Part shown: positions 7,935 through 64,000 of the stretch, in pieces
Numbering within the stretch: position 1 is the first letter of the stretch
Layout of the letters: every line of letters begins with the position of its first letter
Notes under the pieces: model-generated
What the model saw: the letters and a program-made list of their open reading frames with translations, nothing else
What the model was told of the DNA's origin: nothing
Database searches by the model: none
Translations under genes and position numbers: made by a program
NCBI GenBank assembly: GCA_024275145.1
Contig: JAJRZR010000063.1
Location: 1,231 to 65,230 of the forward strand
Source: Deltaproteobacteria bacterium
Lineage (GTDB): Bacteria; Desulfobacterota; Dissulfuribacteria; Dissulfuribacterales; QOAL01
Length of the DNA stretch: 64,000 bases
Direction of reading: 5' to 3'

Positions 7935-10900
7935 ATGGATGATCTTTTATCGCTTTTTACCAAGCCTAAAGATCCTTTAAATTTCAAGGCAGTACGTATA
8001 TCGGTTTCTTCCCCAGAGAATATACTTAAGAGGTCACACGGTGAGGTCAAACAACCTGAGACCATAAACTATCGGACCTTCAAACCCGAAAGGGATGGCC
8101 TGTTTTGCGCGAAGATTTTCGGACCCGTAAAGGATTACGAATGCCTGTGCGGCAAGTACAAACGTATGAAGCACAGGGGGGTCGTATGTGAAAAATGCGG
8201 GGTCGAGGTGATTCAGTCAAAGGTTCGCCGGAGCAGGATGGCCCACATTTCCCTTGCTGCACCGGTTGCCCATATCTGGTTTTTAAAAAGTCTTCCCAGC
8301 AAGATAGGCTCGCTCCTCGATCTGAGCCTCAAGGAACTGGAGCGGGTGCTGTATTTTGAATCCCATATCGTTATCGAGTCCCAGCTCCCGGAGATCCCTG
8401 TAGGCACCTTGATGACCGATGAGGCCTATCACAAGAACCTAGAGCAGTTCGGTGACAAGTTTAAGGTGGGTATCGGTGCTGAGGCAGTGCATCTGTTACT
8501 GGGCCAGCTTGACCTGGATTCACTATCGAGACAACTCAGGGAGGACATGCAGAAGACCCGTTCCGAGGCCAAGAGAAAGAAACTGGGCAAGAGACTCCGG
8601 GTAGTGGAGGCATTCAGGGATTCTGGTAACAGGCCAGAGTGGATGATACTAAGCGTGGTTCCGGTTTTGCCCCCTGATCTCAGGCCCTTGGTGCCCCTTG
8701 ATGGCGGCCGTTTTGCTACCTCTGACCTGAACGATCTCTACCGAAGGGTTATAAACAGGAATAACCGGCTGAAACGGCTCAAGGAATTAGATGCCCCTGA
8801 GATCATCATCAGGAATGAAAAGAGGATGCTCCAGGAGGCAGTGGATGTCCTTTTTGATAATGGCCGAAGGGGAAGGGTGGTTACTGGTCCCAACAAAAGG
8901 CCCCTTAAGTCGCTTTCCGACATGCTCAAGGGGAAACAAGGCCGTTTTCGCCAGAACCTACTGGGTAAAAGGGTTGATTATTCAGGTAGGTCCGTGATCG
9001 TCGTGGGGCCGGAGTTGCGGCTTCATCAGTGTGGCCTGCCGAAGCAGATGGCCATCGAGTTGTTCAAACCATTCATATACAACAAGCTTGAACAGAAGGG
9101 GTTGGTCACCACCATAAAGAGTGCGAAGAAGATGGTGGAGAAGGAACTGCCCGGGGTCTGGGATGCGCTCGACGAGGTCGTAAGGGAACATCCAATCCTC
9201 TTGAACCGCGCCCCGACATTGCACAGGCTGGGCATACAGGCATTCGAGCCGGTGCTCGTGGAGGGCAAGGCAATAATGCTTCATCCCCTGGTTTGCGTTG
9301 CCTACAATGCAGATTTCGACGGGGACCAGATGGCAGTACACGTGCCACTTTCAATCGAGGCCCAGACCGAGGCACGGGTCTTGATGATGTCCACCAACAA
9401 TGTGCTCTCCCCTGCGCATGGTGAGCCGATCATTATGGCAACCCAGGACATCGTGCTTGGCATCTACTATATGACCAGGGAGAGGCCTTTCGCAGTTGGA
9501 GAGGGCAAGAGCTTCATATCACCTGAAGAGGTAATACTGGCCTGGAACAGGGGAAGTGTGCATCTTCAGGCCCGTATCAGGGTCCGAATCAAGGGAAAGA
9601 TGGTGGATACAACCGTGGGCAGGGTCATACTTGCCGATATCGTGCCTGAGGAGGTTCCGTTTGAACTGCTGAACAAGGTGCTTCGCAAAAAAGACCTGGC
9701 CAAGTTGATAGACGTCAGCTACAGGAAGGCAGGTGCCAAGAAGACGTGTATACTCGCTGACAGGATAAAGGACGTTGGCTATAAATTTGCCTCTTATGCC
9801 GGTATTTCTATCGCGATCAACGACATGAAGGTGCCGGTTAACAAGGAAGAGGTCCTTAGGAAGGCCCAGGCAGAGGTTGCCGAGGTGCAGAACCAGTACG
9901 CCGAGGGCCTCATAACGGATGGTGAAAGATATAACAAGGTGATCGATATCTGGAGCCGGGCTACCGATGATGTTGCTAAGGAGATGATGGATGAGATCTC
10001 TGTAGAATATGTCCGGGACAAGGAAGGAAAAATAGTTTCGGTTCCCAGTTTCAATCCCATATTTGTCATGGCCGATTCAGGGGCCAGGGGAAGCAAGGAT
10101 CAGATCAGGCAACTTGCCGGTATGCGTGGGCTTATGGCCAAGCCATCAGGTGAGATTATTGAAACGCCAATCCAGGCGAATTTCAGGGAAGGCCTGAGTG
10201 TACTCGAATACTTCATATCCACCCACGGTGCCCGGAAGGGCCTAGCAGATACAGCGCTCAAAACAGCCAATTCCGGGTACCTGACCAGGCGCCTGGTGGA
10301 TGTCGCGCAGGATTCCACTATCACTATGGAGGACTGCGGCACTATAGACGGGATAGAGATAGAACACCTGATGGAAGGTGGTGAAATAATCCAGCGTCTT
10401 GGGGAAAGGATCCTTGGACGCGTGGCCTTGATGGATATCGTTGATCCTGTGACAGGTGAGGTCCTGGTGCCAGCCAACCAGGAGATAGACGAAGAGGGTA
10501 TAAAGAAGATAGAAGATGCCGGAATATCCAAGGTGGAGATAAGGTCGGTCCTGGTGTGTAGGGCTCCATTCGGCGTGTGTTCTAAGTGTTACGGCAGGGA
10601 CCTGTCCAGGGGACGACTTGTGGCTCAGGGTGAGGCCGTGGGTATCATTGCTGCAGAATCTATCGGTGAACCCGGGACCCAACTCACCATGCGCACGTTC
10701 CATATCGGGGGAACGGCAAGCGGCAAGGTGGAACAGGCAGAGATCCGGTCAAGGGGTAAGGGTGTGGTCAAGTTTGAAAGGGTGAACGCAGTCAGGAATG
10801 CCGAAGGCCGTAATGTGGTACTCAATCGAAACGGTGAGATCGTTATCGTGGCCCCGGACGGACGTGAGCGGGAGCGCTATCCGGTCATCTATGGTGCGGA

Positions 10901-12017
10901 GCTGCTGGTCGAGGAGGGCCAGGAGGTCGAGCCAGGCCAGAAACTTGCCCAATGGGATCCATTTACCATACCGATACTTACTGAGGTGCCTGGTAAGGTC
11001 AAATTCGGCGATATCATTGAGGGTGTAACCATACAAGAAAAGGTGGATCCAGTAACCGGCAAGGCTAGCAAGGTGGTGATTCAGCATAAGGCCGCTGAAT
11101 ACAGGCCGAGGGTATCCATCAAGGACGAACGAGGCCGCACCTTGAAGTTGGTCAAATCAAAGGGTGAAGCCAGGTATTTCCTGCCCGTGGGGGCCATCAT
11201 CACGGTCAATGAAGGGGAGATGATCCAGGCCGGGGAGCCGGTGGCCAAGATTCCAAGGGAGACCACAAAGACCAAGGACATCACTGGGGGTCTGCCAAGG
11301 GTGGCTGAACTCTTCGAGGTCAGAAAACCCAAGGAATACGCCATCATCAGCGACATAGACGGTGTCGTGTCCTTCGGCAAAGATATAAAGAGCAAACGCC
11401 GTATCATAATCACGCCAGAGTTTGGTGAGCCGAAGGAATATCTGGTGCCCAGGGGAAAACACATCAATGTACATGAAGGTGACTATGTCAGGGCCGGTGA
11501 ACCACTGATGGACGGTGTGGTCAATCCCCATGATATCCTGCGGGTGAAGGGCATCAAGGAGCTGGCAAGGTATCTGGTGGATGAGATCCAGGAGGTCTAC
11601 CGGCTGCAGGGGGTCAAAATTAACGATAAGCACATAGAGGTCATCGTGCGCCAGATGCTTCGACGGGTCAAGATAACCAGTGTGGGTGACAGCCACTTCA
11701 TGCTGGGTGAGCAGGTGGAGCGTACCGAGTTCGAGAAGGAAAACGAAAAGATCCTCGCCGAGGGTGGTGAACCGGCAACCGCAGAACCTATGTTGCTGGG
11801 AATTACCAGGGCATCGTTGACAACGGATAGCTTCATTTCGGCGGCCTCCTTCCAGGAGACTACAAAGGTACTTACCGATGCCTCTATCATGGGAAAGGTA
11901 GACCATCTGCGCGGATTGAAGGAAAATGTGATCATGGGCCGCTTGATCCCAGCAGGAACAGGCAGGGTTTTCTACGAAGAAAAGGAGCGGAAACGGTCCC
12001 TGCCATTACAGGGATAA
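7935..12017 (+). CDS. rpoC: DNA-directed RNA polymerase subunit beta'
   Basis: 1360-aa ORF; zinc-binding [23 protein letters not shown], catalytic [12 protein letters not shown]. Confidence 0.99.
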
Positions 12018-15320: not shown

Positions 15321-15704
15321 ATGCGATTATTTAAGGCGCCGTGTAATTTGGACGTAGAAGATTTTATTAAGAGGTTGAAATCGTATCCTGACAGTAAAAA
15401 TGCCGGTATGGTGCTCATACACAATGGTATAGTCCGGGCTACCAGCAGGAACGGGGACGATGTTTTTTCTATGGAAGTGACGGCGGATGAAGATCGTCTC
15501 GGTGAGATCATATCATGGGCCAGTGGCCTTCCGGGGATTTTGGCTGTAGATGCCGAGGTAGTTACCGGCAGGCTTTATGTTTGAGATGATATAATGCTTT
15601 TGGGGGTTGCAGGGGATGTGAGGCAAAACGTAATCCATGCACTTGCTGTCACCCTGGATCGCATAAAACAAGAGGTAACGAAAAAACAGGAGTTTAGTGC
15701 TTGA
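15321..15704 (+). CDS. MoaE-like protein interrupted by an in-frame TGA at 15582-15584 (pseudogene, sequence error or recoding)
   Basis: Called ORF 15321-15584 (87 aa; GMVLIHNGIVRATSRNG resembles the MoaE FxGxVR motif). The same frame continues DDIMLLGVAGDVRQNVIHALAVTLDRIKQEVTKKQEFSA to TGA 15702-15704, matching the MoaE C-terminal half. Confidence 0.5.
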
Positions 15705-52329: not shown

Positions 52330-53553
52330 CTATATCCTGAACCACGATTTCATGCGGTTCGTTACCCTGTTGAAGATGTTCCTGTCCCTTATGCGGAATT
52401 TCTTCCTGGGTTGATGCTCTATGCCATAAAGTACAAGCCCCACGGCAGTGGCAAATTTGGGGCTGTTCACTACATCCACAAGGCCAGATATCCGCCTGGG
52501 AAAGCCGATCCGGGTCGGTAGCTGGAAGATCTGGTCAGAAATTTCAGCTATGCCGGGCAAAAGCGCCGACCCCCCGGTTATAACCATGCCGGATACCAGC
52601 AGGTCCTTCAGCTTGGTGCGTTCTATTTCCTGGTCGATCAGGTTGAATATCTCCTCCACCCGAGGCTCCAGGATCTCTGCCAGTATCTGCTTGGCCAATA
52701 GCCTGGGTTTTCTGCCTCCTACACTGGGCACCTCGATCATCTCATCCTTTTTGACCATGGCAGGCAGACACGTTCCCTGCCTCACTTTGATCTTTTCCGC
52801 CTCGTTCATGGGGGTGCGAAGTCCAACGGCGATGTCATTCGTGAGATTGTTTCCCCCAAGCCCGAGAACGGCGGTATGCTTAATGGCACTTTCAGCCAGG
52901 AGGGCCAGGTCTGTAGTACCCCCGCCAAAATCTACTAGGGCGACCCCAAGGTCCTTTTCCTCCTGGGTGAGGACTGCCTCGGCAGAGGCAAGGGGCTGCA
53001 GCACGATGTCGATCACATCGAGGCCGGCCCGGTTAGCGCATTTTATGAGGTTCCTGGCCGCAGTTACGGCACCGGTGACTATGTGGACCTTGGCCTCGAG
53101 CCTGACGCCGGTCATCCCTACCGGGTCCAATATTCCACCCTGATCATCCACCATGTATTCCTGGGGTAGGGTATGGATCACCTCCCTGTCCAGGGGAATG
53201 GCTATTGCCCTGGCTGCATCTATGACCCTTTCCACATCGTCAATGGTTACCTCGTCTCCCTTTATGGCTATCGCCCCATGGCTGTTGAAGCCTTTTATAT
53301 GGCTGCCTGCAATCCCGATGAAGACAGAGCCGATCTCGCACCCAGCCATCAGTTCCGCCTCTTCGATGGCCTTACGAATGGAATTTACCGTGCTGTCGAT
53401 GTTGACCACTACGCCCTTTCGCAGCCCTACGGATGGATGGGTGCCGATGCCGATTATTTCCACACTGTCTTCGGCGGCTTCGCCAACCACGGCACATATC
53501 TTGGTAGTGCCTATATCAAGCCCTACAACTATGTCGCAGGATCTATCCATCAT
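52330..53553 (-). CDS. ftsA: Cell division protein FtsA
   Basis: 407-aa ORF; actin-fold motifs [34 protein letters not shown]. Confidence 0.97.
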
Positions 53554-54398
53554 TTCCTCTTTACCGCCCGGGGACGCGCAATCGCCCTGTTTGGCCCATA
53601 ATCCATGTCTACCATGGCAACTTGATCGTATTTCCCAGAATTATACAAATGGTACAGGACCCTCTCCGCCTTTGCGAATTGAGTGTCCAGATGGGATTCA
53701 TTCAGCCTGAAGGGGATTCCCCTGTCGGACGTATAAACTACGAGGTGGCCATCGCCATCCACGTGTATCTGGCTTATGTTCTTGATACCAAGGGTTCTGA
53801 CCCCCTTGCTGGCCAGGCGGATGAGCCTTAACGCCTCCTTTACGCCATCGACATCTGCGATGTTGCCCGATGGCCGGGAACCATTGAGCCTGACCCTGAC
53901 CCCTGTTATGATGGGAAGAGAGAATTTGTCGTCCTTCCCGAGTTCCTTGAATATATCTCCGCTTGCGTCTATCAGGTAAATCTTTCCTGCATTGAGAAAG
54001 GCAACGGGCCTCCTTTCATGCACGGTTATCTTAACCTTGTCGGGCAATATGCGGGTGATCTCCACCCTTGCAATCCAGGGATTTCGTTTGATGTTACCTG
54101 CAATCCCTTGAAGGTCCAGGGCCAAGAGGTTGTCATCCCGGGTTATCCGGCTCAACTTCAGGATCTCCTCCTCCGGAACCCGGCGGCATCCGTCTATCTC
54201 AACATGATCAACCGTGAACATCCGTGAGGTGCTTACCCATCTCCATGCGCCGTAGGTCCCGAGTACGCACAGCGCAACAATGGAGAATGCCGCAAGAATA
54301 ACGAGCGCCAGCTTGCCGTTACTCCTGCCAGTGGGTTCCGTTCGACAGGCCGAAAATCCGCTGACTGTTCGTGAGTTCAGGGGTCTTCTCCTATTCAC
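53550..54398 (-). CDS. ftsQ: Cell division protein FtsQ
   Basis: 282-aa ORF, GTG start; single TM then POTRA (FTVDHVEIDGCRRV) and FtsQ beta domain; overlaps the ftsA start. Confidence 0.88.
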   Translation of the reverse strand: MNRRRPLNSRTVSGFSACRTEPTGRSNGKLALVILAAFSIVALCVLGTYGAWRWVSTSRMFTVDHVEIDGCRRVPEEEILKLSRITRDDNLLALDLQGIAGNIKRNPWIARVEITRILPDKVKITVHERRPVAFLNAGKIYLIDASGDIFKELGKDDKFSLPIITGVRVRLNGSRPSGNIADVDGVKEALRLIRLASKGVRTLGIKNISQIHVDGDGHLVVYTSDRGIPFRLNESHLDTQFAKAERVLYHLYNSGKYDQVAMVDMDYGPNRAIARPRAVKRK

Positions 54399-55347
54399 CG
54401 TTGCTGTTCCATATGGTAACCTCGGGTTCGAGGTCTATGCCGGTGGCGTTCTTCACCTGACTCTTTACAATCTGCATAAGCTCAACCACTTGGAGCTAGG
54501 TGGCGCTCCCGCGGTTAATCACGAAGTTTGCGTGTATTTCGGATATGGCCGCGTCCCCGACACTGATTCCTTTCAGCCCGCAATCCTCGATCAATTTACC
54601 TGCCGGGCATTCTGTCGGGTTTTTAAATACACAGCCAGGGCTTGGTTGCCCCAGGGGTTGGGTGGAGATCCTCTTACCCATGATCCTGCGTATTCTTTGC
54701 CGTATGCTTCTGGCGCTTGAAGGCACAAGGGCACTGCCCATTGAAGAAGGTCCTTGCCCGTCCCCCCGTTCCCTAGGGACCCTGGTGTCTAGCGGAATCT
54801 CCACTGCCGATACAATCTGGCCAGGGGGCAGATGGGATTTCCTGTAACCAAGCCCCAATTTTTCGACCGGTACCCAATGGCTTTCACCGGGACCAGTGAG
54901 TAAGGCCCTGCTTGCAAGGCCTCCCATGGACAGGGAGTTCGTCCCGGCATTCATGAAGAGTGCCCCACCAATACTTGCAGGTATGCCGCACAACCCCTCT
55001 GTGCCAGCAAGAGAATGTGAAAGCGCCCATGCGATCAGCCTTGATAGCCGGCAACCTGCCTCTATTATTACGGCCCCTTGCGTCATTTGGATCCCCTTCA
55101 TATGCCTCAATGAAAGTACGATCTCTTCACCCTGCTCGCTTACGAGGAGATTGCTTCCCTGCCCGAGTATTCTGAACGAAAGCTCTTTTTCCTTGAAGAA
55201 CAGAAGGGCCTTTTCAAGTGCGGTTACGGTCCCTGGCAACACCAGGTACCTGGCCGGTCCACCTATCCTGAAGGTAGTGAGAGTGGCGAGGGATACGTTC
55301 CTTAGTACTTCCAGCCCCTCTATCTTTTTCAGCTCACGATCCAGCAA
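54391..55347 (-). CDS. murB: UDP-N-acetylenolpyruvoylglucosamine reductase MurB, with an in-frame TAG at 54496-54498
   Basis: Called ORF 54496-55347 ends ...SEIHANFVINRGSAT. The same frame continues LQVVELMQIVKSQVKNATGIDLEPEVTIWNSNGE to TAG 54391-54393, which overlaps the ftsQ GTG; this tail matches the conserved MurB C-terminus. Confidence 0.85.
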
Positions 55348-56731
55348 CCGCCATCTCCTTTTGTCTGAGTTTTGCTATGAGTGCATGACCTGTTTTTCCG
55401 ATCGCTCCCGCCCCCATGGTAATGATTACATCATTGTGCCTTATGTGGGGCAAAACCGCTGCAGGAAGGTCCTGGCAGTTATCTACGTAATGTACAGGGG
55501 TCCCAAGCTTCCTTTTTATATTTCGTGCAAGCCGTTTCCCATCAACACCAACTATGGGGGGCTCGCTTGCCGGGTATATGGACGTAATCCATAACTCGTC
55601 TGCTTCCTTGAATGCACCGGGAAATTCGTCCATGAGTAGTCTGGTCCTGCTGTAGCGATGGGGTTCAAAGAGCACAACCAGACGTCTGTCCGGCCATGCG
55701 GCCCTGGCAGCGGTCAGGGTGGCGAGTATCTCGGTCGGGTGATGCGCATAGTCATCCATTATAGTTATCCCGTCTACATGGCCCAATATGTCGAAACGCC
55801 TGCCCACCCCCTCGTAACTGCGAAGGCCGGCCTGAATCCTGGGAAAGGATATATCAAGCTCGAGTCCAACCGCTATGGCAGCCAGCGAGTTTCGTACATG
55901 ATGCAACCCCGGCACCGAAAGACAGACCCGGCCAAGGTCGGTGCCACGGTAGCAAGCAGTGTATGATACCCCTATCCCCGAAAAGGTGATGTCCTTTGCC
56001 TGGAGTTCCGACCCGGCCCTGGTGCCGTAGGTCATTATTCTTTTTTTCCCATGGACGGCCAGCCTGGCAAGATGCGGGTCGTCTGAGCACAGGATGGCAA
56101 CGCCATAGAAAGGGATGCGGTCGATGAATTCCTGGAAGCTCCTGGTTATCGCCTCGATGTCTGGATAAAAGTCAAGGTGCTCCCTGTCTATGTTGGTGAC
56201 CACGGCAATGCTCGGGGTCAATCGCAGGAAGCTTCCATCGCTTTCATCTGCCTCTGCCACCAGGAATTCGCCGCCTCCCCAGTAGGCATTCGTGCCCATG
56301 CCGTTTACCTTTCCCCCGATTATGACCGTTGGGTCCAGGCCTGCCCTGATGAGCACTGCTGCGACCATTGAGGTGGTGCTCGTCTTGCCATGCGCCCCTG
56401 CCACGGCGATTCCGAATTTTTTGAGCCTCATAAGCTCCGCCAGCATGGCAGCCCTGGGAATGACCGGTATCTGCAACGATCTGGCTGCAATTACCTCAGG
56501 GTTGTTTTCCTTGACGGCCGAGGAGGTCACCACCACGTCGGCGCCGACGATGTTTTCCGGGTCATGGCCTCTGAATATGGTGCCACCCTTAGCCTTGAGT
56601 GCCCTGGTTATTTCAGTCTCCCTAAGGTCCGATCCAGAGACCTCGTAGCCAAGGGTCAAGAGTACCTGGGCCAGGCCGCTCATGCCGATTCCCCCGATAC
56701 CAACAAAATGGATATGCTGCTTCTTATACAT
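55334..56731 (-). CDS. murC: UDP-N-acetylmuramate--L-alanine ligase
   Basis: 465-aa ORF; HFVGIGGIGMSGLA, GAHGKTSTTSM, Mur ligase central and C-terminal domains. Confidence 0.96.
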   Translation of the reverse strand: MYKKQHIHFVGIGGIGMSGLAQVLLTLGYEVSGSDLRETEITRALKAKGGTIFRGHDPENIVGADVVVTSSAVKENNPEVIAARSLQIPVIPRAAMLAELMRLKKFGIAVAGAHGKTSTTSMVAAVLIRAGLDPTVIIGGKVNGMGTNAYWGGGEFLVAEADESDGSFLRLTPSIAVVTNIDREHLDFYPDIEAITRSFQEFIDRIPFYGVAILCSDDPHLARLAVHGKKRIMTYGTRAGSELQAKDITFSGIGVSYTACYRGTDLGRVCLSVPGLHHVRNSLAAIAVGLELDISFPRIQAGLRSYEGVGRRFDILGHVDGITIMDDYAHHPTEILATLTAARAAWPDRRLVVLFEPHRYSRTRLLMDEFPGAFKEADELWITSIYPASEPPIVGVDGKRLARNIKRKLGTPVHYVDNCQDLPAAVLPHIRHNDVIITMGAGAIGKTGHALIAKLRQKEMAVAGS

Positions 56732-57926
56732 TGTCGTGTACTGTTACCCTTTCGATAGTGCTGTCCGTGCAAGGCCCTTTTGGCCTGTTACCTTTCTTGT
56801 TCTTGAGGAGGATGCTTACAATATCCCGGGTTGCATTCGGCCTTCCAAGCCTTTCTGCCTTTTCCCTCATCTTGTTCAACCTGTTGGTTTCTCTGAAAAG
56901 CATCTCTATCTCACCGGCGAGTTTTACAGCCCCAATGTCGTCCTGTCTGAAACATTTTGCTGCTCCTGCCCTTTCCATCAACTTTGCGTTTGCTTCCTGG
57001 TGCCCGTCCGATGCAAAGGGGTAGGGGATAAGGATAGAGGCGACGCCTAGGGATGTAAGTTCTGAGAGTGTAGTGGCACCTGCACGGCACAAAACCAGGT
57101 CTGCCCAGCGATAGGCCCGTCCCATCTCGTTTATGAACGGGGATACCTTGGCAGGCAATCCCACCTCCTGATAGGCGTCCCTTACCCTTGAACAGTCCGC
57201 AGTGCCGGTTTGATGCCATACCTCTATCTTTATCCCTGATTGCCACAAGATCTTGATCGCCGAGCTTGCCAGCCGGTTCAGAGATTGAGAGCCCTGGCTT
57301 CCACCGATCACAAGGAGCCTTTTATGGCCATCCCCTCTGAAGTTGTGTCGATCCCTGTCCATCAGTATGGATTTTCTGACCGGGGTGCCTGTGAGTTCTA
57401 CAATATTCTTAGGGAAATATTTCCTGGTTTCCTCAAAACTTACCAATACCTTTCCTGCAAACCTAGCGGACAAACGATTGGCAAGGCCCGGCACGAGATT
57501 TTGTTCATGTATGGCCGTTGGTATCCCAAGTAACCGTGCAGCTACCAGGACTGGTCCGGATACATAGCCGCCTACACCAAGGACGATGTCCGGCTTGAAC
57601 TCCCTGATCCATGCCAGTGCCCGCATGATTACCAGGGGCATGGACAACAGGGAGATGGCCCGTTTACCAAGGCCTACGCCATGAAGCGGCCTTACATTGA
57701 GACATTTGTAGTTCCATGCCCTGCCACGGAGTGCAGCGGTTTCCACCTGGCGTCCGGTCCCGATCCATAGGAGTTCGAGGCCGGTCCTGTCCTCGACGGC
57801 CTCAGCGATGGCGATTCCAGGGAAGACATGACCCCCGGTCCCACCGCCGGCAATGATCAGCCTCGTTTTCTCCAGGTTGCCAGACATGGAAAGGTGCTCG
57901 TTCCTACGCGCAATCGATTCATTCAT
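56724..57926 (-). CDS. murG: UDP-GlcNAc:lipid I GlcNAc transferase MurG
   Basis: ORF 56724-58043; ATG 57926 overlaps the murD stop (ATGAATGA); an alternative start is ATG 57887 just before IIAGGGTGGHVFPG. Confidence 0.93.
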   Translation of the reverse strand: MNESIARRNEHLSMSGNLEKTRLIIAGGGTGGHVFPGIAIAEAVEDRTGLELLWIGTGRQVETAALRGRAWNYKCLNVRPLHGVGLGKRAISLLSMPLVIMRALAWIREFKPDIVLGVGGYVSGPVLVAARLLGIPTAIHEQNLVPGLANRLSARFAGKVLVSFEETRKYFPKNIVELTGTPVRKSILMDRDRHNFRGDGHKRLLVIGGSQGSQSLNRLASSAIKILWQSGIKIEVWHQTGTADCSRVRDAYQEVGLPAKVSPFINEMGRAYRWADLVLCRAGATTLSELTSLGVASILIPYPFASDGHQEANAKLMERAGAAKCFRQDDIGAVKLAGEIEMLFRETNRLNKMREKAERLGRPNATRDIVSILLKNKKGNRPKGPCTDSTIERVTVHDNV

Positions 57927-59385
57927 GGATAAATGCCTCGGATAGATCCTCAACGGCCCTTTGGAATAAACGGCCTCTTTCTTTGTAGTCCCGGAACATA
58001 TCGAAGCTTGCACACGCAGGGGACAGGACCACCGTGTCCCCACATTCGGCCACGGAGACCGCGGCCTTTACCGCCTCCCGCATCGTCTTCTCTCCATTGC
58101 TACCATTGAAGATCCCGATTATATCGACAACATCTTTGAGCGTCTCTTTCAGGGCAGCCGCCTCTGTCCCCATCAAGGCTACGGCCTTTATCCATCCGCC
58201 TTTCCTTCCATTTTTACCATGGAAACGCATGGCGGTAACGGCCTGTTTCAGCGCGGAATAATCCTCGTTTTTCCCCTGTCCACCCATGATGAATATACCC
58301 GGACCCTCGAGCGCCTCCATGGCCCGTATGCTTGCGGCCACATTCGTGGCCTTCGAGTCGTCAATGTATCTAACCCCGTCCCGTTCGCAGACAAGCTCGA
58401 AACGGTGGCTAGGTGCCTTGAAGGTATCCATGGCCCTTTGAATAGCCCTTGGGCCTGCCCCTGCAAGTCTGGCGGCAAGGATGGCACAGGCCAGGTTTTC
58501 CAGGTTGTGGAGACCTCGTAGCGTCCAATGCTCGAGGGAATAGCACTCATGTTCACCCCCGGGCCACCTAACCTGGATCTGGTCATGGTTAGGATCCGTA
58601 AATGCCCCGGCCCTGCCACGGGAACAAGTGCCGAAGTATAGCTTCCTGGTCCTGTTGACCCAGTGCCAGTTTGCGGATACCGGGTCATCCAGGTTCAGGA
58701 GGCTCCAGTCCTCTGGCCCCTGGTAGCGGAGGAGCCTGGCCTTGATGTTTCCATATGCCTGGAGATCATTATGTCGATCCAGGTGGTCTGGAGCAAGATT
58801 CAGCCAGGCGGCTACGTTGAACCTGGGTCGTGCAAAGGGAAGATGCCAGCTTACAGGAAGATATTCCAACTGGAAACTGCTTACCTCCAGTACCGCCGTG
58901 GTATCCTCGGAGTTGTCAGCCATCAGGGCGGCCAGTGGGGGCGCAATATTTCCCCCCGTGACTATTTTTGATCCGGCCTGCCTTAACATGTGCGATACAA
59001 GGCTGGTGGTGGTGGTCTTCCCGTTGGTCCCGGTGATGGCAAGTATTGGACCCTTCCAGAATGCCGCGGCCAAGGCCAGCTCTCCTATGATATCGATTCC
59101 TTCCTCGTAAATGCGTCTTACCAGTAGTGAATCAGGCCTGATGCCAGGGCTTACCACGGCCAGGTCCGCCCTTTTGAGGAGTACGTCGAGTCCTTTGTCG
59201 TCGATTACCCTTACCCCTTCGTCCTCGCACCACGATCTTAGCCAACCAGGCCATTTTGCAAGTGGCTTAGCATCATAGCAGATTAGGTCGGCACCCATCT
59301 TCCTGAGCCATGTGGCGGTTGCCTGGCCCGAGATGCCCATTCCCAGGACGGCTATGTGTAGGTTTTTTAGTACATTTATTTTCAT
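57919..59385 (-). CDS. murD: UDP-N-acetylmuramoylalanine--D-glutamate ligase
   Basis: 488-aa ORF; [23 protein letters not shown]; overlaps the mraY stop. Confidence 0.95.
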
Positions 59386-60461
59386 CTCAGTTTCAAGGTG
59401 CTTATTGCCACCAGTCCCAACAGGACAGATATGATCCAGAATCTCACTACAACCTTCGGTTCTGCCCAGCCCTTCAATTCAAAATGGTGGTGTATCGGTG
59501 CCATACGAAATATTCTTTTTCCCTTCGTCATCTTGAAATAGCCTACCTGTAGCATTACCGAAAGTGCCTCTACCACAAAAATCCCCCCTACGATGGCCAG
59601 GAGGATTTCCTGCTTTGATAGTACGGCTACCACCCCCAAGGCGCCTCCAATGGAAAGGGAGCCGACATCCCCCATGAATATCTCTGCTGGATAGGTGTTA
59701 TACCATAGAAAACCGAGTCCAGCTCCGACCATGGCACCACAAAATATTGCCAACTCGCCGGCGCCTGGGACAGTCGGTATCTGTAAATAGTGTGCCAGCG
59801 TGGCATGGCCAGCTAGATAAGAGAACAGGGTATAGACAGCAGCTGCCACGACGAATGGTCCAGTTGCCAAGCCATCCAGTCCATCGGTCAGGTTTACTGC
59901 ATTAGATGAGCCTACTATTACCAGAAGGGCAAAGATTGCGTAGAAGAGACCAAGGTCAGGCCTACAATTTTTGAGGAAGGGGATACTAAGATGCGTATCC
60001 CAGCTACTGTTAAAGGCAATGAACAATGTGCCGGCAATCACGATCATGACCTGGCCGGTCAGCTTCCAACGGCCCGCCAGCCCTCTGCTGGTTTTACGTC
60101 TTACTTTGAGTATGTCGTCACAAAGACCTATGAGTCCGTATCCCACCAGTATCAGGATACTTATCCAGATATATATTACGGAAAGATCAGCCCATAATAG
60201 CGTGGCCGTGACAATAGAACCAATGATGAGAACTCCTCCCATGGAGGGGGTGCCTTGCTTTATCCTGTGGCTCTGCGGTCCATCCTCGCGGACCACCTGC
60301 CCCATCTGGAGCCGTTGCATCTTGCGTATGAACCACGGCCCAAGGAACAGCGTGATACACAACGCCGTTATGGCGGCATAGATCGTCCTGAAGGTTATGT
60401 ACCTGAAGACGTTAAAAATGGCCCAATGACTGTGGAGGGGATAGATGAGATGGAATAACAT
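59382..60461 (-). CDS. mraY: Phospho-N-acetylmuramoyl-pentapeptide transferase
   Basis: 359-aa ORF; multiple TM helices; [41 protein letters not shown]. Confidence 0.97.
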
Positions 60462-60470
60462 GATGAGGCC

Positions 60471-63446
60471 TTATCCCCCCACCCGGTTTTTCGCTGGGAA
60501 TGCGCAGGCTCCCAGGGAGCCGCACAGGGCCTCACTGGCCCTTTCAAGGCCTACGGCCCTTGAGCCCTTGACAAGTATTACAGAGGAGGGCCTGAACGTA
60601 TCGAGGCCGTCCCTGGTTCCCAGCCATTCGAGCAGCTCATCCGTGTCGGTGAATGTGTGGATCCTTTCGTTAGGAAAGCCGGAGCGCCTGGCGCCTCGGG
60701 CAATTTCATTCCCCATGTTACCCACGGTTATCAAGGTGTCTAGGCCGGTTTCAGATGCCTGTCTTCCCAGATTTTCATGAAACGATGGAGCCATGCTGCC
60801 AAGCTCCAGCATGTCACCCAGTATGGCCACGCGCCTGCATCCATTTCCAAACCCTCCCAGTACCTTGAGCGCGGCTTCCATAGAACCGGGATTCGCGTTG
60901 TAATGATCCTCTATTATGGTTACGGCCTTTCCAATCCTCCTGGCAACCAGCCTCCCGGGAGGGGCGCAAGCCTTTTCGAGGCCTGCCTTGATAAGCGGCA
61001 GGGGTAATCCAGCGGCAATCCCGACAGAAGCCGCTGCAAGGGCATTCTGTACATTGGCCTCCCCGATGAGAGGAAGCATGATATCCACTGACCTTCCATT
61101 GTCTGCCTCTATTATCATGCGTGTGCCAGTGGGGCCAGGAGACCATGAAGGGCAATGGAGTATGTTTCTGACCTCCATGCCAGCCCTGGGCATCACCAGA
61201 CGTTTCCGCCATTCCGTCCGGCCCTTCATCGTATAGCCTATTATGCAGGTTGCAGAGGTATACCTCAGGCCTTCAAACACCAGGATATCATCGAGGTTCA
61301 CCACCGCGATTCCCTTTGGGGACAATGATCGCCACAGGCACCATTTTTCCCTGGCTATTTCCCTCAACGTCCCCAGGCCTTCAAGATGTGCAGGCCTTAT
61401 ACAGGTTATCAGGCCTATGTCCGGTGCCGCTATTTCGCACAGCCTGGCTATCTCACCAGGGTGGTTGGTACCCATTTCTAGGACCGCGAATTCCTGCCCT
61501 GGTCTTAGTGCAAGTATGCTCAGCGGAAGTCCTACGAGGTTGTTGAAGTTCCCAGGTGTTTTGCCGACAGGGAAACCGGCCTGGAGGATAGATGCCACGA
61601 GGTCCTTGGTGCTGGTTTTGCCACAGCTACCAGTAATCCCAACCACCTTTATCGAAAGCGTCGCCCTGTACCAGCCTGCATAGTCACCGAGCGCCTTTAG
61701 GGTGTCCTGGACGGTCAGAACAGGTCTGTCTTCCCTAGTGACGGCATCTTCAAGGTCTGGACCCGCCACGGCGGCCACGGCACCCTTTTGGAGCGCGCTT
61801 TCGACAAACCGGTTTCCATCAAAATTATCACCAGTAAGCGCCCAAAAAAGCTCCCCTTCTCGAACCGCTCTGGAATCGGTGGAGACCGCCTTGAACCTTA
61901 CGTCCCTGAAGCGAACCGGAAGGTGGGCACCTATGGCCCCTGCTACATCCGAGAGCCTACTCAGGCCCCCAATTTCTTCCCTGATAACTGCAACGTCATC
62001 AAATGGAACCTTCCTGGTACCGATTACCTGGTATTTTTCATGGCCCTTGCCGGCCACAAGCAGGCAATCGCCTGGGGCCAGTTGCTCAATCGCCCATCTT
62101 ATGGCCTCTCTACGGTCTGTTATGGCCCTTGTCTTCTCCAACAGGGAGCCCGTCCCCCCCCTGATGCCATCGAGCATGTCATTGATTATGCTTTCCGGAT
62201 CTTCGCTCCTCGGATTGTCAGAGGTGAAGATCGCAAGATCACACAGGACGGCTGCAACCCTTGCCATCAGGGGGCGTTTGCCCTTGTCCCTGTCCCCACC
62301 GCAGCCAACCAGGCAAACAAGGCGTTTTTTCGTCAGTCTTCTGAGGGAGCCAAGCACCTTTTCCAGGGCATCGGGGGTATGGGCGTAATCCACCAATACG
62401 AGGGCATCCCGTATACGGGCTATCCTTTGAAGCCTGCCAGGGATGACCTCGACCCTTTCAATGCCCTTTTTGATGGAGGCACTGGTGCAACCCATAGCCA
62501 GCGCTGTACATGATGCGGCCAGGATGTTGTAGAGGTTGTGCAGCCCCATGAGCCTGGATGATATTCCAATCCTTTCTCCATGCAGAGAAATAGTGCAACT
62601 GATCCCATCCGTGTCAAGCCTGTACCAGGTAGGTCTTACTATGGCCCCCTTGTCCAGACCGAAGCTCAACCTCTTTCCTCTTACCATGTGCCAAAGCCTT
62701 GCACCGTAGGGATCATCCATGTTGAGGACTGCTGTCTCGCAAGGGAATTCGGTGAAAAGTCGTGCCTTGGCCTGGAAGTATGATTCCATATTCCTGTGAT
62801 AATCAAGGTGGTCACGGCTGAGGTTGGTGAATGTCGCGGCCTTGAACCTGCATCCACTGATTCTTTTTTGCAGGATGGCATGGGATGAGATTTCCATGGC
62901 TACGGCCTTTGCACCGTTTTCACGCATGCGTGCCAGGCATTCTTGCAGGCTGACTGGATCCGGTGTGGTAAGTTTTGACGGTTGAAAGTAGCCACCTTGT
63001 CTTTGATTGATGGTTCCAATGACGCCAGGGTTGAGGCCCTCTTCCTGGAAGATTCCCTCAAGCAGGTACGTTACCGTGGTTTTCCCGTTGGTGCCTGTAA
63101 TACCTGCGATAGTCAATGGGCTGCCATCGTTTCCATAGATAAAGCTTGCGATCCTGCCGGTTAATCCCCTTGGATCGACCACCGGAATGACAGGGACGAA
63201 GCTTGGAACCACGTCGGCCAGATCTTCCGGGATATCACTTGAAACCATTATGGCGCCTGCTCCCCTTTTGATCGCGTCCTGCACGAAGTCAAGGCCGCTA
63301 CGGGTAGTTCCTTCCAGGGCAACGAATATATCGCCCTGGTTTACCCGCCTGGAATCCAACGAAATTCCACTAACCTCTATGTCGTTACACGGCCTTTCCA
63401 GCCTTATCTCCTCTGGAAACCGGGCCAGTATATCTTCCAGTTTCAT
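60471..63446 (-). CDS. murE/murF: Fused MurE-MurF (meso-DAP-adding ligase plus D-Ala-D-Ala-adding ligase) in one ORF
   Basis: ORF 60471-63584 (likely start ATG 63446, MKLEDIL). N-terminal ~494 aa is MurE ([17 protein letters not shown]). The junction ...FDDVAVIREEIGG|LSRLSDVAGAIGAHL at ~61965 leads straight into MurF (DSRAVREGELFWAL, ITGSCGKTSTKD) with no stop or restart. Confidence 0.9.
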   Translation of the reverse strand: MKLEDILARFPEEIRLERPCNDIEVSGISLDSRRVNQGDIFVALEGTTRSGLDFVQDAIKRGAGAIMVSSDIPEDLADVVPSFVPVIPVVDPRGLTGRIASFIYGNDGSPLTIAGITGTNGKTTVTYLLEGIFQEEGLNPGVIGTINQRQGGYFQPSKLTTPDPVSLQECLARMRENGAKAVAMEISSHAILQKRISGCRFKAATFTNLSRDHLDYHRNMESYFQAKARLFTEFPCETAVLNMDDPYGARLWHMVRGKRLSFGLDKGAIVRPTWYRLDTDGISCTISLHGERIGISSRLMGLHNLYNILAASCTALAMGCTSASIKKGIERVEVIPGRLQRIARIRDALVLVDYAHTPDALEKVLGSLRRLTKKRLVCLVGCGGDRDKGKRPLMARVAAVLCDLAIFTSDNPRSEDPESIINDMLDGIRGGTGSLLEKTRAITDRREAIRWAIEQLAPGDCLLVAGKGHEKYQVIGTRKVPFDDVAVIREEIGGLSRLSDVAGAIGAHLPVRFRDVRFKAVSTDSRAVREGELFWALTGDNFDGNRFVESALQKGAVAAVAGPDLEDAVTREDRPVLTVQDTLKALGDYAGWYRATLSIKVVGITGSCGKTSTKDLVASILQAGFPVGKTPGNFNNLVGLPLSILALRPGQEFAVLEMGTNHPGEIARLCEIAAPDIGLITCIRPAHLEGLGTLREIAREKWCLWRSLSPKGIAVVNLDDILVFEGLRYTSATCIIGYTMKGRTEWRKRLVMPRAGMEVRNILHCPSWSPGPTGTRMIIEADNGRSVDIMLPLIGEANVQNALAAASVGIAAGLPLPLIKAGLEKACAPPGRLVARRIGKAVTIIEDHYNANPGSMEAALKVLGGFGNGCRRVAILGDMLELGSMAPSFHENLGRQASETGLDTLITVGNMGNEIARGARRSGFPNERIHTFTDTDELLEWLGTRDGLDTFRPSSVILVKGSRAVGLERASEALCGSLGACAFPAKNRVGG

Positions 63447-63501
63447 TTGTTTCTTGGATGATAGGGGGGATCTCTGATCCCAGCAACCGGGATGCGCGCC
63501 C

Positions 63502-64000
63502 CTATCGATTTCTTCTCTCCTTGCAGATGATCTTACAGGTGGTGCCTGGACGTATCCGTGTCCCTGCCCTTGGTACCTGTGCAACTACTATACCCCTTCC
63601 TTCGAGCCGGGGCCGCATGCCCATTGTCCTTAATATATCAAAGGCGGCCCTCATGGATTTGCCATTTAGTGAAGGCATTCTCCCACGGTCTCGTGCGGGG
63701 AAATCCTGTGATGATGCCTTCAGCCTATTGCTGTTTCGTTCCCTGGAGGCGGTGATGCTCCAGGCCCTCTTGGCTATTGTAATGGTATGGCCCATGGTGC
63801 CCCTGCATTTTCTGGGATCCTTCGATACATGGTTCAAGACGGAAACATAACTTATTCTGGGCGTGCTGGGAGGCCAGAAGCCAAGGGAGACTACCTGGTA
63901 GTATCGGGGGGCCGTTGCCCTTTCTTCCCCGGGAAACCATCTTACGCCTACCAGGGATGGCCCATCAGGGGTGGCCAGCAGCACTTCGAGCCTGTTTGTC
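63502..64000 (-). CDS. ftsI: Penicillin-binding protein (FtsI/PBP3-like) C-terminal part with PASTA domain; 5' end outside the window
   Basis: The frame runs off the window edge; SLGFWPPSTPRISYVSVL resembles the FxGFAPxxxPR transpeptidase motif; the last ~60 aa (MPSLNGKSMRAAFDILRTMGMRPRLEGRGIVVAQVPRAGTRI) are PASTA-like. Confidence 0.7.
   Translation of the reverse strand, partial: TNRLEVLLATPDGPSLVGVRWFPGEERATAPRYYQVVSLGFWPPSTPRISYVSVLNHVSKDPRKCRGTMGHTITIAKRAWSITASRERNSNRLKASSQDFPARDRGRMPSLNGKSMRAAFDILRTMGMRPRLEGRGIVVAQVPRAGTRIRPGTTCKIICKERRNR

Follow-up and report, generated by a model that had tools for sequence, protein, structure and literature searches.

The murB gene of the DNA stretch analysed here (64,000 nt in all, hereafter the window) was interrupted by a premature in-frame TAG, which is codon 284 of 318 (54496-54498, minus strand) and is most likely a private single-base nonsense substitution, either an error of the consensus or a recent deleterious allele. 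The frame opened at a TTG start at 55347 and ran for 283 codons (54499-55347) to ...HANFVINRGSAT, where the TAG followed. Past this stop, the same frame continued for 34 more codons (codons 285-318; 54394-54495), reading LQVVELMQIVKSQVKNATGIDLEPEVTIWNSNGE, up to a second TAG at 54391-54393. The whole gene therefore spans 55347-54391 on the minus strand, and 35 of its codons were lost to the stop. The 283-aa protein in the ORF list contained FAD_binding_4 and the first part of MurB_C. It was identical to a protein (P0001) called on a single NCBI contig (66,904 nt), which indicates that the TAG is part of the deposited sequence.

Judged by homology, the 34-codon tail is the genuine MurB C-terminus. 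An open stretch of this length was estimated to occur by chance in about one case in five at the base composition of the window; such a stretch is not unusual, so it is homology that carries the case for the tail. The Pfam domain MurB_C (PF02873) covered residues 215-312, corresponding to positions 2-98 of the 99 in the model, only when the TAG was read through. With FAD_binding_4 (PF01565) at residues 33-145, the read-through product had the FAD_binding_4 plus complete MurB_C architecture. Furthermore, it matched positions 1-288 of 290 in the TIGR00179 model with a score of 189 bits, compared with a cutoff of 144.5. An initial interpretation from the letters alone (the sequence-only reading) had placed the amber codon inside a functional murB frame, and the extension of both MurB_C and TIGR00179 across the TAG bore this out. 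Its identification of the tail as the true C-terminus was also in agreement with the MurB_C match to position 98 of 99 and with the closest relative, whose MurB has 318 aa and shares 32 of the 34 tail residues. In addition, the E. coli alignment that it gave proved to be right: the TAG column corresponded to E. coli Ser300, and the LEPEV motif of the tail to residues 322-326. A codon-usage scan performed without homology on 583 same-frame segment pairs split by one stop ranked the murB TAG first and a TGA at 15582 second, and the remaining pairs were antisense to real genes.

The distal TAG at 54391-54393 was the natural terminator of murB. The ftsQ gene (53550-54398, minus strand) starts at GTG 54398 and shares 8 nt (54391-54398) with the end of murB, as had been noticed from the sequence. 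All four assemblies of the nearest relative have the same terminal GAATAG as the window, and in the relative murB (10001-10957) and ftsQ (from 10947) overlap in the same arrangement.

The part of the protein cut off by the TAG includes an active-site residue. Glu309 (GAG, 54421-54423, minus strand), located in the LEPEV motif, was the same residue in 70 of 70 aligned MurB sequences, and a gapless alignment to PDB 1mbb_A 264-334 equated it with Glu325 of E. coli MurB. The Glu325 equivalent was thus present, but downstream of the TAG. In PMC12844806, which cites Benson et al. 1997 for this, Glu325 is named among the residues that touch the carboxylate of the substrate and help to stabilise the transition state. 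Because Glu309 lies beyond the stop, the 283-residue protein is without part of the active site, and the truncated product is predicted to be unable to work. Around murB, the genes murE-murF, mraY, murD, murG, murC, ftsQ, ftsA and ftsZ were all intact, which indicates that the cell-wall and division pathway is in use. With an invariant Glu in the tail and an intact cluster around it, a fixed null murB is hard to square with a living population. If the TAG were real, translation would stop about 100 nt before the ftsQ start is reached, and the translational coupling to ftsQ would probably suffer as well.

The order of the cluster was murE, murF, mraY, murD, murG, murC, murB, ftsQ, ftsA and ftsZ, both in the window (53550-63584, minus strand) and in the relative (L001). 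As far as ORF order and the Pfam annotation of the relative show, neither had ftsW between murD and murG or ddl between murB and ftsQ. In the window, murE and murF formed one ORF of 1037 codons (60471-63584, minus strand), with the junction near 61950-61970, and this in-frame fusion read ...EEIGG-LSRLSDVAGAIGAHL... across it. The two genes overlap in different frames in the relative; the window was without 5 nt (ATGGG), and the murF ATG was changed to CTG. The fusion may represent a natural enzyme with both MurE and MurF functions, or a further peculiarity of this assembly.

The nearest MurB homologue (P0002) showed 86% amino acid identity, had exactly 318 aa and read ...GNATSLQVVELM.... Its gene was recovered from four assemblies that are independent of one another (one from ENA, two NCBI MAGs and one from Logan), and TCA (Ser) replaced the TAG in all four. 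Among 69 homologues, the TAG column held Ala in 42, Phe in 13, Cys in 7, Ser in 6 and Tyr in 1. The inspection of this column in orthologues, suggested as a check by the sequence-only reading, therefore gave TCA in the relative and a sense residue in every homologue. The possibility that the MurB of relatives genuinely ends at ...GSAT was contradicted, as none of the 69 homologues examined ended at this column. The TAG was private to the window assembly among everything searched.

These comparisons also bear on the possibility of a naturally short MurB of 283 aa, or of a split MurB in which a tail translated from GTG 54489 associates with the main part; both are barely conceivable. A 32-codon ORF starting at GTG 54489 does exist. 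However, no purine-rich ribosome-binding motif was seen by eye in the 15 nt before it, the relative has one uninterrupted gene, and the tail holds the invariant catalytic-site Glu. Moreover, the other split murB calls found in public assemblies were frameshift breaks. A short or split MurB was effectively refuted by the homologue alignment.

The comparison with the relative also indicated the age of the stop. Of the 34 tail codons, 17 were unchanged; synonymous differences accounted for 15 of the others and non-synonymous ones for 2, and the tail contained neither an indel nor a further stop. For the N-terminal 283 codons, 95 synonymous and 41 non-synonymous differences were counted, with a dN/dS of 0.096. 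The selective constraint on the tail was at least equal to that on the N-terminal part. Therefore, purifying selection has acted on the tail for practically the whole time since the split from the relative, and the stop is very young. The gene did not have the features of a decaying pseudogene, the tail being without relaxed selection, indels or extra stops. The same population was also searched for in other data. A scan of species-representative genomes returned only the relative at 86%, a scan of JGI metagenomes returned only homologues at 29-34% identity and no close relative, exact-protein look-ups of P0001, ftsQ and murC gave no match, and a homology search with the C-terminal 105 aa of MurB found no closer fragment.

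A second conserved gene was interrupted in a similar way. A MoaE-like gene of 127 codons (15321-15704, plus strand) contained a TGA at 15582-15584, after which 39 codons followed in the same frame to 15704. The Pfam MoaE model was matched at positions 6-114 of 114 across the stop. The TGA column was an invariant Gly in all MoaE-like homologues, and the two nearest relatives had GGG and GGA, which supported the earlier listing of this TGA as a second case in the window. The truncated 78-aa product (P0123) was called from the same 66,904-nt NCBI contig as P0001. Selenocysteine at this position was rejected: the column is Gly rather than Cys or Sec, and the 80 nt after the TGA folded no better than shuffles (z = 0.02), with no SECIS-like structure. 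The MoaE-like TGA is a private nonsense lesion of the same kind as the murB TAG. One of the private stops is TAG and the other TGA, so no one recoding system could account for the pair. A Logan contig of 1187 nt from run SRR13258545 (L029) carried a MoaE-like protein 89% identical to that of the window, compared with 81% for the S143_34 relative; the run may therefore include an organism closer to the source, as short contigs only.

The decoding of UAG, by an amber suppressor tRNA, by pyrrolysine or by an evolved programmed read-through, would give full-length MurB from the sequence as written, but this explanation is very unlikely. The downstream frame is intact and conserved, and a suppressor tRNA-Ser with the anticodon CUA would restore the ancestral residue. 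Furthermore, some marine Deltaproteobacteria have both the Sec and the Pyl systems (PMC8318568), and an in-frame TGA and an in-frame TAG both occur in the window. However, a quarter of the long ORFs in the window (12 of 48) ended in TAG, as did murB itself 34 codons further on, and several of these ORFs had lengths equal or close to those in the relative: 407 and 406 for ftsA, 306 in both for ybbR, 317 in both for dnaJ and 197 in both for scpB. Genome-wide reassignment of TAG to sense was rejected, TAG being an ordinary terminator in the window. No tRNA-CUA was found within the 64-kb window, which contained just tRNA-Arg(CCG) and tRNA-Arg(TCT), and an Rfam scan of the window gave nothing beyond these two. 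The fold of the 80 nt after the TAG was slightly better than that of shuffled sequences (z = -2.05; 7 of 200 shuffles were as good), but the small hairpin responsible was missing in the relative, where z was 0.01. At 54479-54498 (minus strand), the AG of the TAG paired in a small hairpin, AGCUC...GAGCU, which is impossible in the sequence of the relative; this hairpin is weak and probably incidental. Programmed read-through was rejected, as no relative carried the stop and no stimulatory element was conserved. In Deltaproteobacteria, Pyl is known from conserved positions in the active sites of methylamine methyltransferases, and its insertion requires the pyl genes together with a tRNA-CUA (PMC8318568). 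The murB column, in contrast, was variable, the UAG was not conserved in orthologues, and the gene is murB rather than a methylamine methyltransferase, so pyrrolysine was also rejected. Moreover, the TGA on an invariant Gly without a SECIS-like fold means that two different mechanisms would be needed. Error, recent nonsense mutation and read-through or suppression had been offered as explanations by the sequence-only reading; the first two still stand, whereas the last gains no support, given that TAG is a normal terminator, that relatives have sense codons at both sites, that the two stops differ and lie on columns of unrelated kinds, and that no RNA structure is conserved. It is likewise highly improbable that this uncultivated Dissulfurimicrobium relative (Thermodesulfobacteriota) tolerates in-frame UAG and UGA by leaky termination or suppressor tRNAs. 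If that were true, an essential murB would be kept functional by stop-codon suppression, and a Ser-inserting amber suppressor would restore MurB exactly.

With regard to the process that made the stops, no frameshifted gene was found in the window, everything else was intact, and the gene lengths matched those of the relative nearly one for one over about 40 kb of shared synteny. Two nonsense hits in conserved genes and no frameshifts indicate a substitution-only process; judging from mutation spectra, ordinary gene decay normally brings indels too. Each lesion is compatible with a G:C-to-T:A change, GGA giving TGA in the MoaE-like gene and, for an ancestral TCG codon, TCG giving TAG in murB; on the plus strand, each could be taken as G-to-T. 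This class made up 26-39% of all routes to a stop when all substitutions were enumerated, and the probability of both lesions belonging to it by chance was 0.07-0.15; the shared mutational signature was therefore rejected as evidence. If the substitutions were random, the total load expected from two nonsense hits in 53.7 kb of coding sequence would be about 60 changes with a uniform spectrum, or about 27 if all were G:C-to-T:A. The RpoC of the window was 98.1% identical to that of the relative and aligned without gaps, and all 26 differences were in variable columns. When these differences were polarised with 31 outgroups, no window-private change was found at conservation thresholds of at least 90%, 70% and 50% of the outgroups (208, 413 and 655 columns, respectively), a result of low power with a P(0) of 0.21-0.49 under the loads implied by the two nonsense hits. 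For MurB, the window-only deviations were 0, 1 and 4 and the relative-only deviations 1, 1 and 2 at the three thresholds, again with low power. In this weak test, no excess of substitution noise was apparent in the RpoC or MurB sequences. Broken murB genes were also seen elsewhere. In ENA ERZ1286166 contig_1818 (L032), every gene of the dcw cluster was in pieces, which is typical of an indel-rich assembly, and in JGI Ga0495054_002154 (L033), murB alone was split into 250 and 86 aa in different frames by a frameshift. These two were rejected as a base rate for the murB TAG, as their breaks are of the indel type, unlike the substitution-only window.

A substitution error in the consensus or assembly of the one deposited assembly has about an even chance of being the cause of the murB TAG, the origin in sequencing or assembly being one that we infer. 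According to this explanation, a Ser codon, either TCG or (through an intermediate step) TCA, would have been turned into TAG by a private single-base nonsense substitution that arose in the sequence record and is not decoded. The living organism would then make a normal 318-aa MurB, and the process that created the TAG would also have changed GGA to TGA in the MoaE-like gene. Assembly artefacts account for many of the internal-stop pseudogenes in public genomes, and they depend on coverage, platform and assembler (Cooley & Wright 2024, PMC11017572). These documented artefacts and the implausibility of a fixed null murB favour a consensus error, as do the private and very young stop, the similar hit in a second conserved gene and the lack of frameshifts. 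However, MAGs were outside the scope of that study (PMC11017572), substitution errors in a short-read consensus are rare at good coverage, and the 66.9-kb contig suggests that coverage was decent. The roughly 27-60 changes implied if the two hits came from random substitutions also stand against the absence of private changes at 655 RpoC columns, although this is weak with a P(0) of 0.21-0.49. The TAG might instead be a real, very recent nonsense allele of the sampled population or of a dominant clone, with an inactive 283-aa MurB, an explanation which we regard as possible but somewhat doubtful. Survival of the cells would depend on rare read-through by near-cognate tRNAs or on another murB in the genome, or it would be only transient, and the variant would perhaps come from a G:C-to-T:A mutator lineage. 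Both stops are in the deposited record (P0001 and P0123, same contig), and the window is otherwise clean, without frameshifts or private changes at conserved RpoC positions, which is unlike a sloppy consensus. Both lesions also fit G:C-to-T:A transversions, the class that arises from unrepaired 8-oxoguanine. In addition, the variability of the TAG column (Ala, Phe, Cys, Ser and Tyr) suggests that a read-through product would probably be active, and the C right after the stop is a weak termination context. However, the loss of the invariant active-site Glu from an enzyme on which peptidoglycan synthesis normally depends should be strongly counter-selected, two nonsense alleles at majority within 64 kb are unlikely without a bottleneck, and the shared transversion class is uninformative, as described above.

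The main value of these results lies in annotation. P0001 (283 aa) and P0123 (78 aa) are truncated products of interrupted genes and not natural short variants, and two internal stops in 64 kb flag the quality of the assembly. If both stops were true in the organism, an essential cell-wall gene would carry an amber codon in a natural population, and suppression would be worth seeking.

The murB TAG is an ordinary kind of lesion. Amber mutations and their suppressors are classical, such as supD, a tRNA-Ser with the anticodon CUA, and the rpoS amber allele of E. coli K-12. Like these, the murB lesion is a one-step change from a sense codon to TAG in a functional gene, and a Ser-inserting suppressor would restore the residue exactly. 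It differs from them in that no suppressor tRNA lies within the window and that murB is normally essential, whereas rpoS is not. Compared with characterised MurB enzymes (PDB 1mbb, 2mbr and 4pyt), the window gene has the same FAD_binding_4 and MurB_C domains and the LEPEV motif with the Glu325 equivalent, and it is located between murC and ftsQ in a cell-division and cell-wall cluster, as in other MurB loci; unlike them, it is not a single uninterrupted frame but is broken at codon 284 of 318. The code expansion by Pyl and Sec (Kivenson et al. 2021, PMC8318568) resembles the situation in the window in having in-frame TAG and TGA codons in the same broad group, with TAG still a terminator elsewhere. 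However, the Pyl and Sec sites are conserved in orthologues, catalytic in particular enzyme families, and accompanied by pyl genes and tRNA-CUA or by a SECIS hairpin (PMC8318568), whereas the stops in the window are private, lie on a variable small-residue column (MurB) or an invariant Gly (MoaE-like), and have no supporting structure. The internal-stop pseudogenes described by Cooley & Wright (2024, PMC11017572) were found in RefSeq isolate genomes, where many of them were demonstrated to be artefacts; they share with the window an otherwise intact conserved gene, one private in-frame stop where close relatives have a sense codon, and more than one case per assembly.
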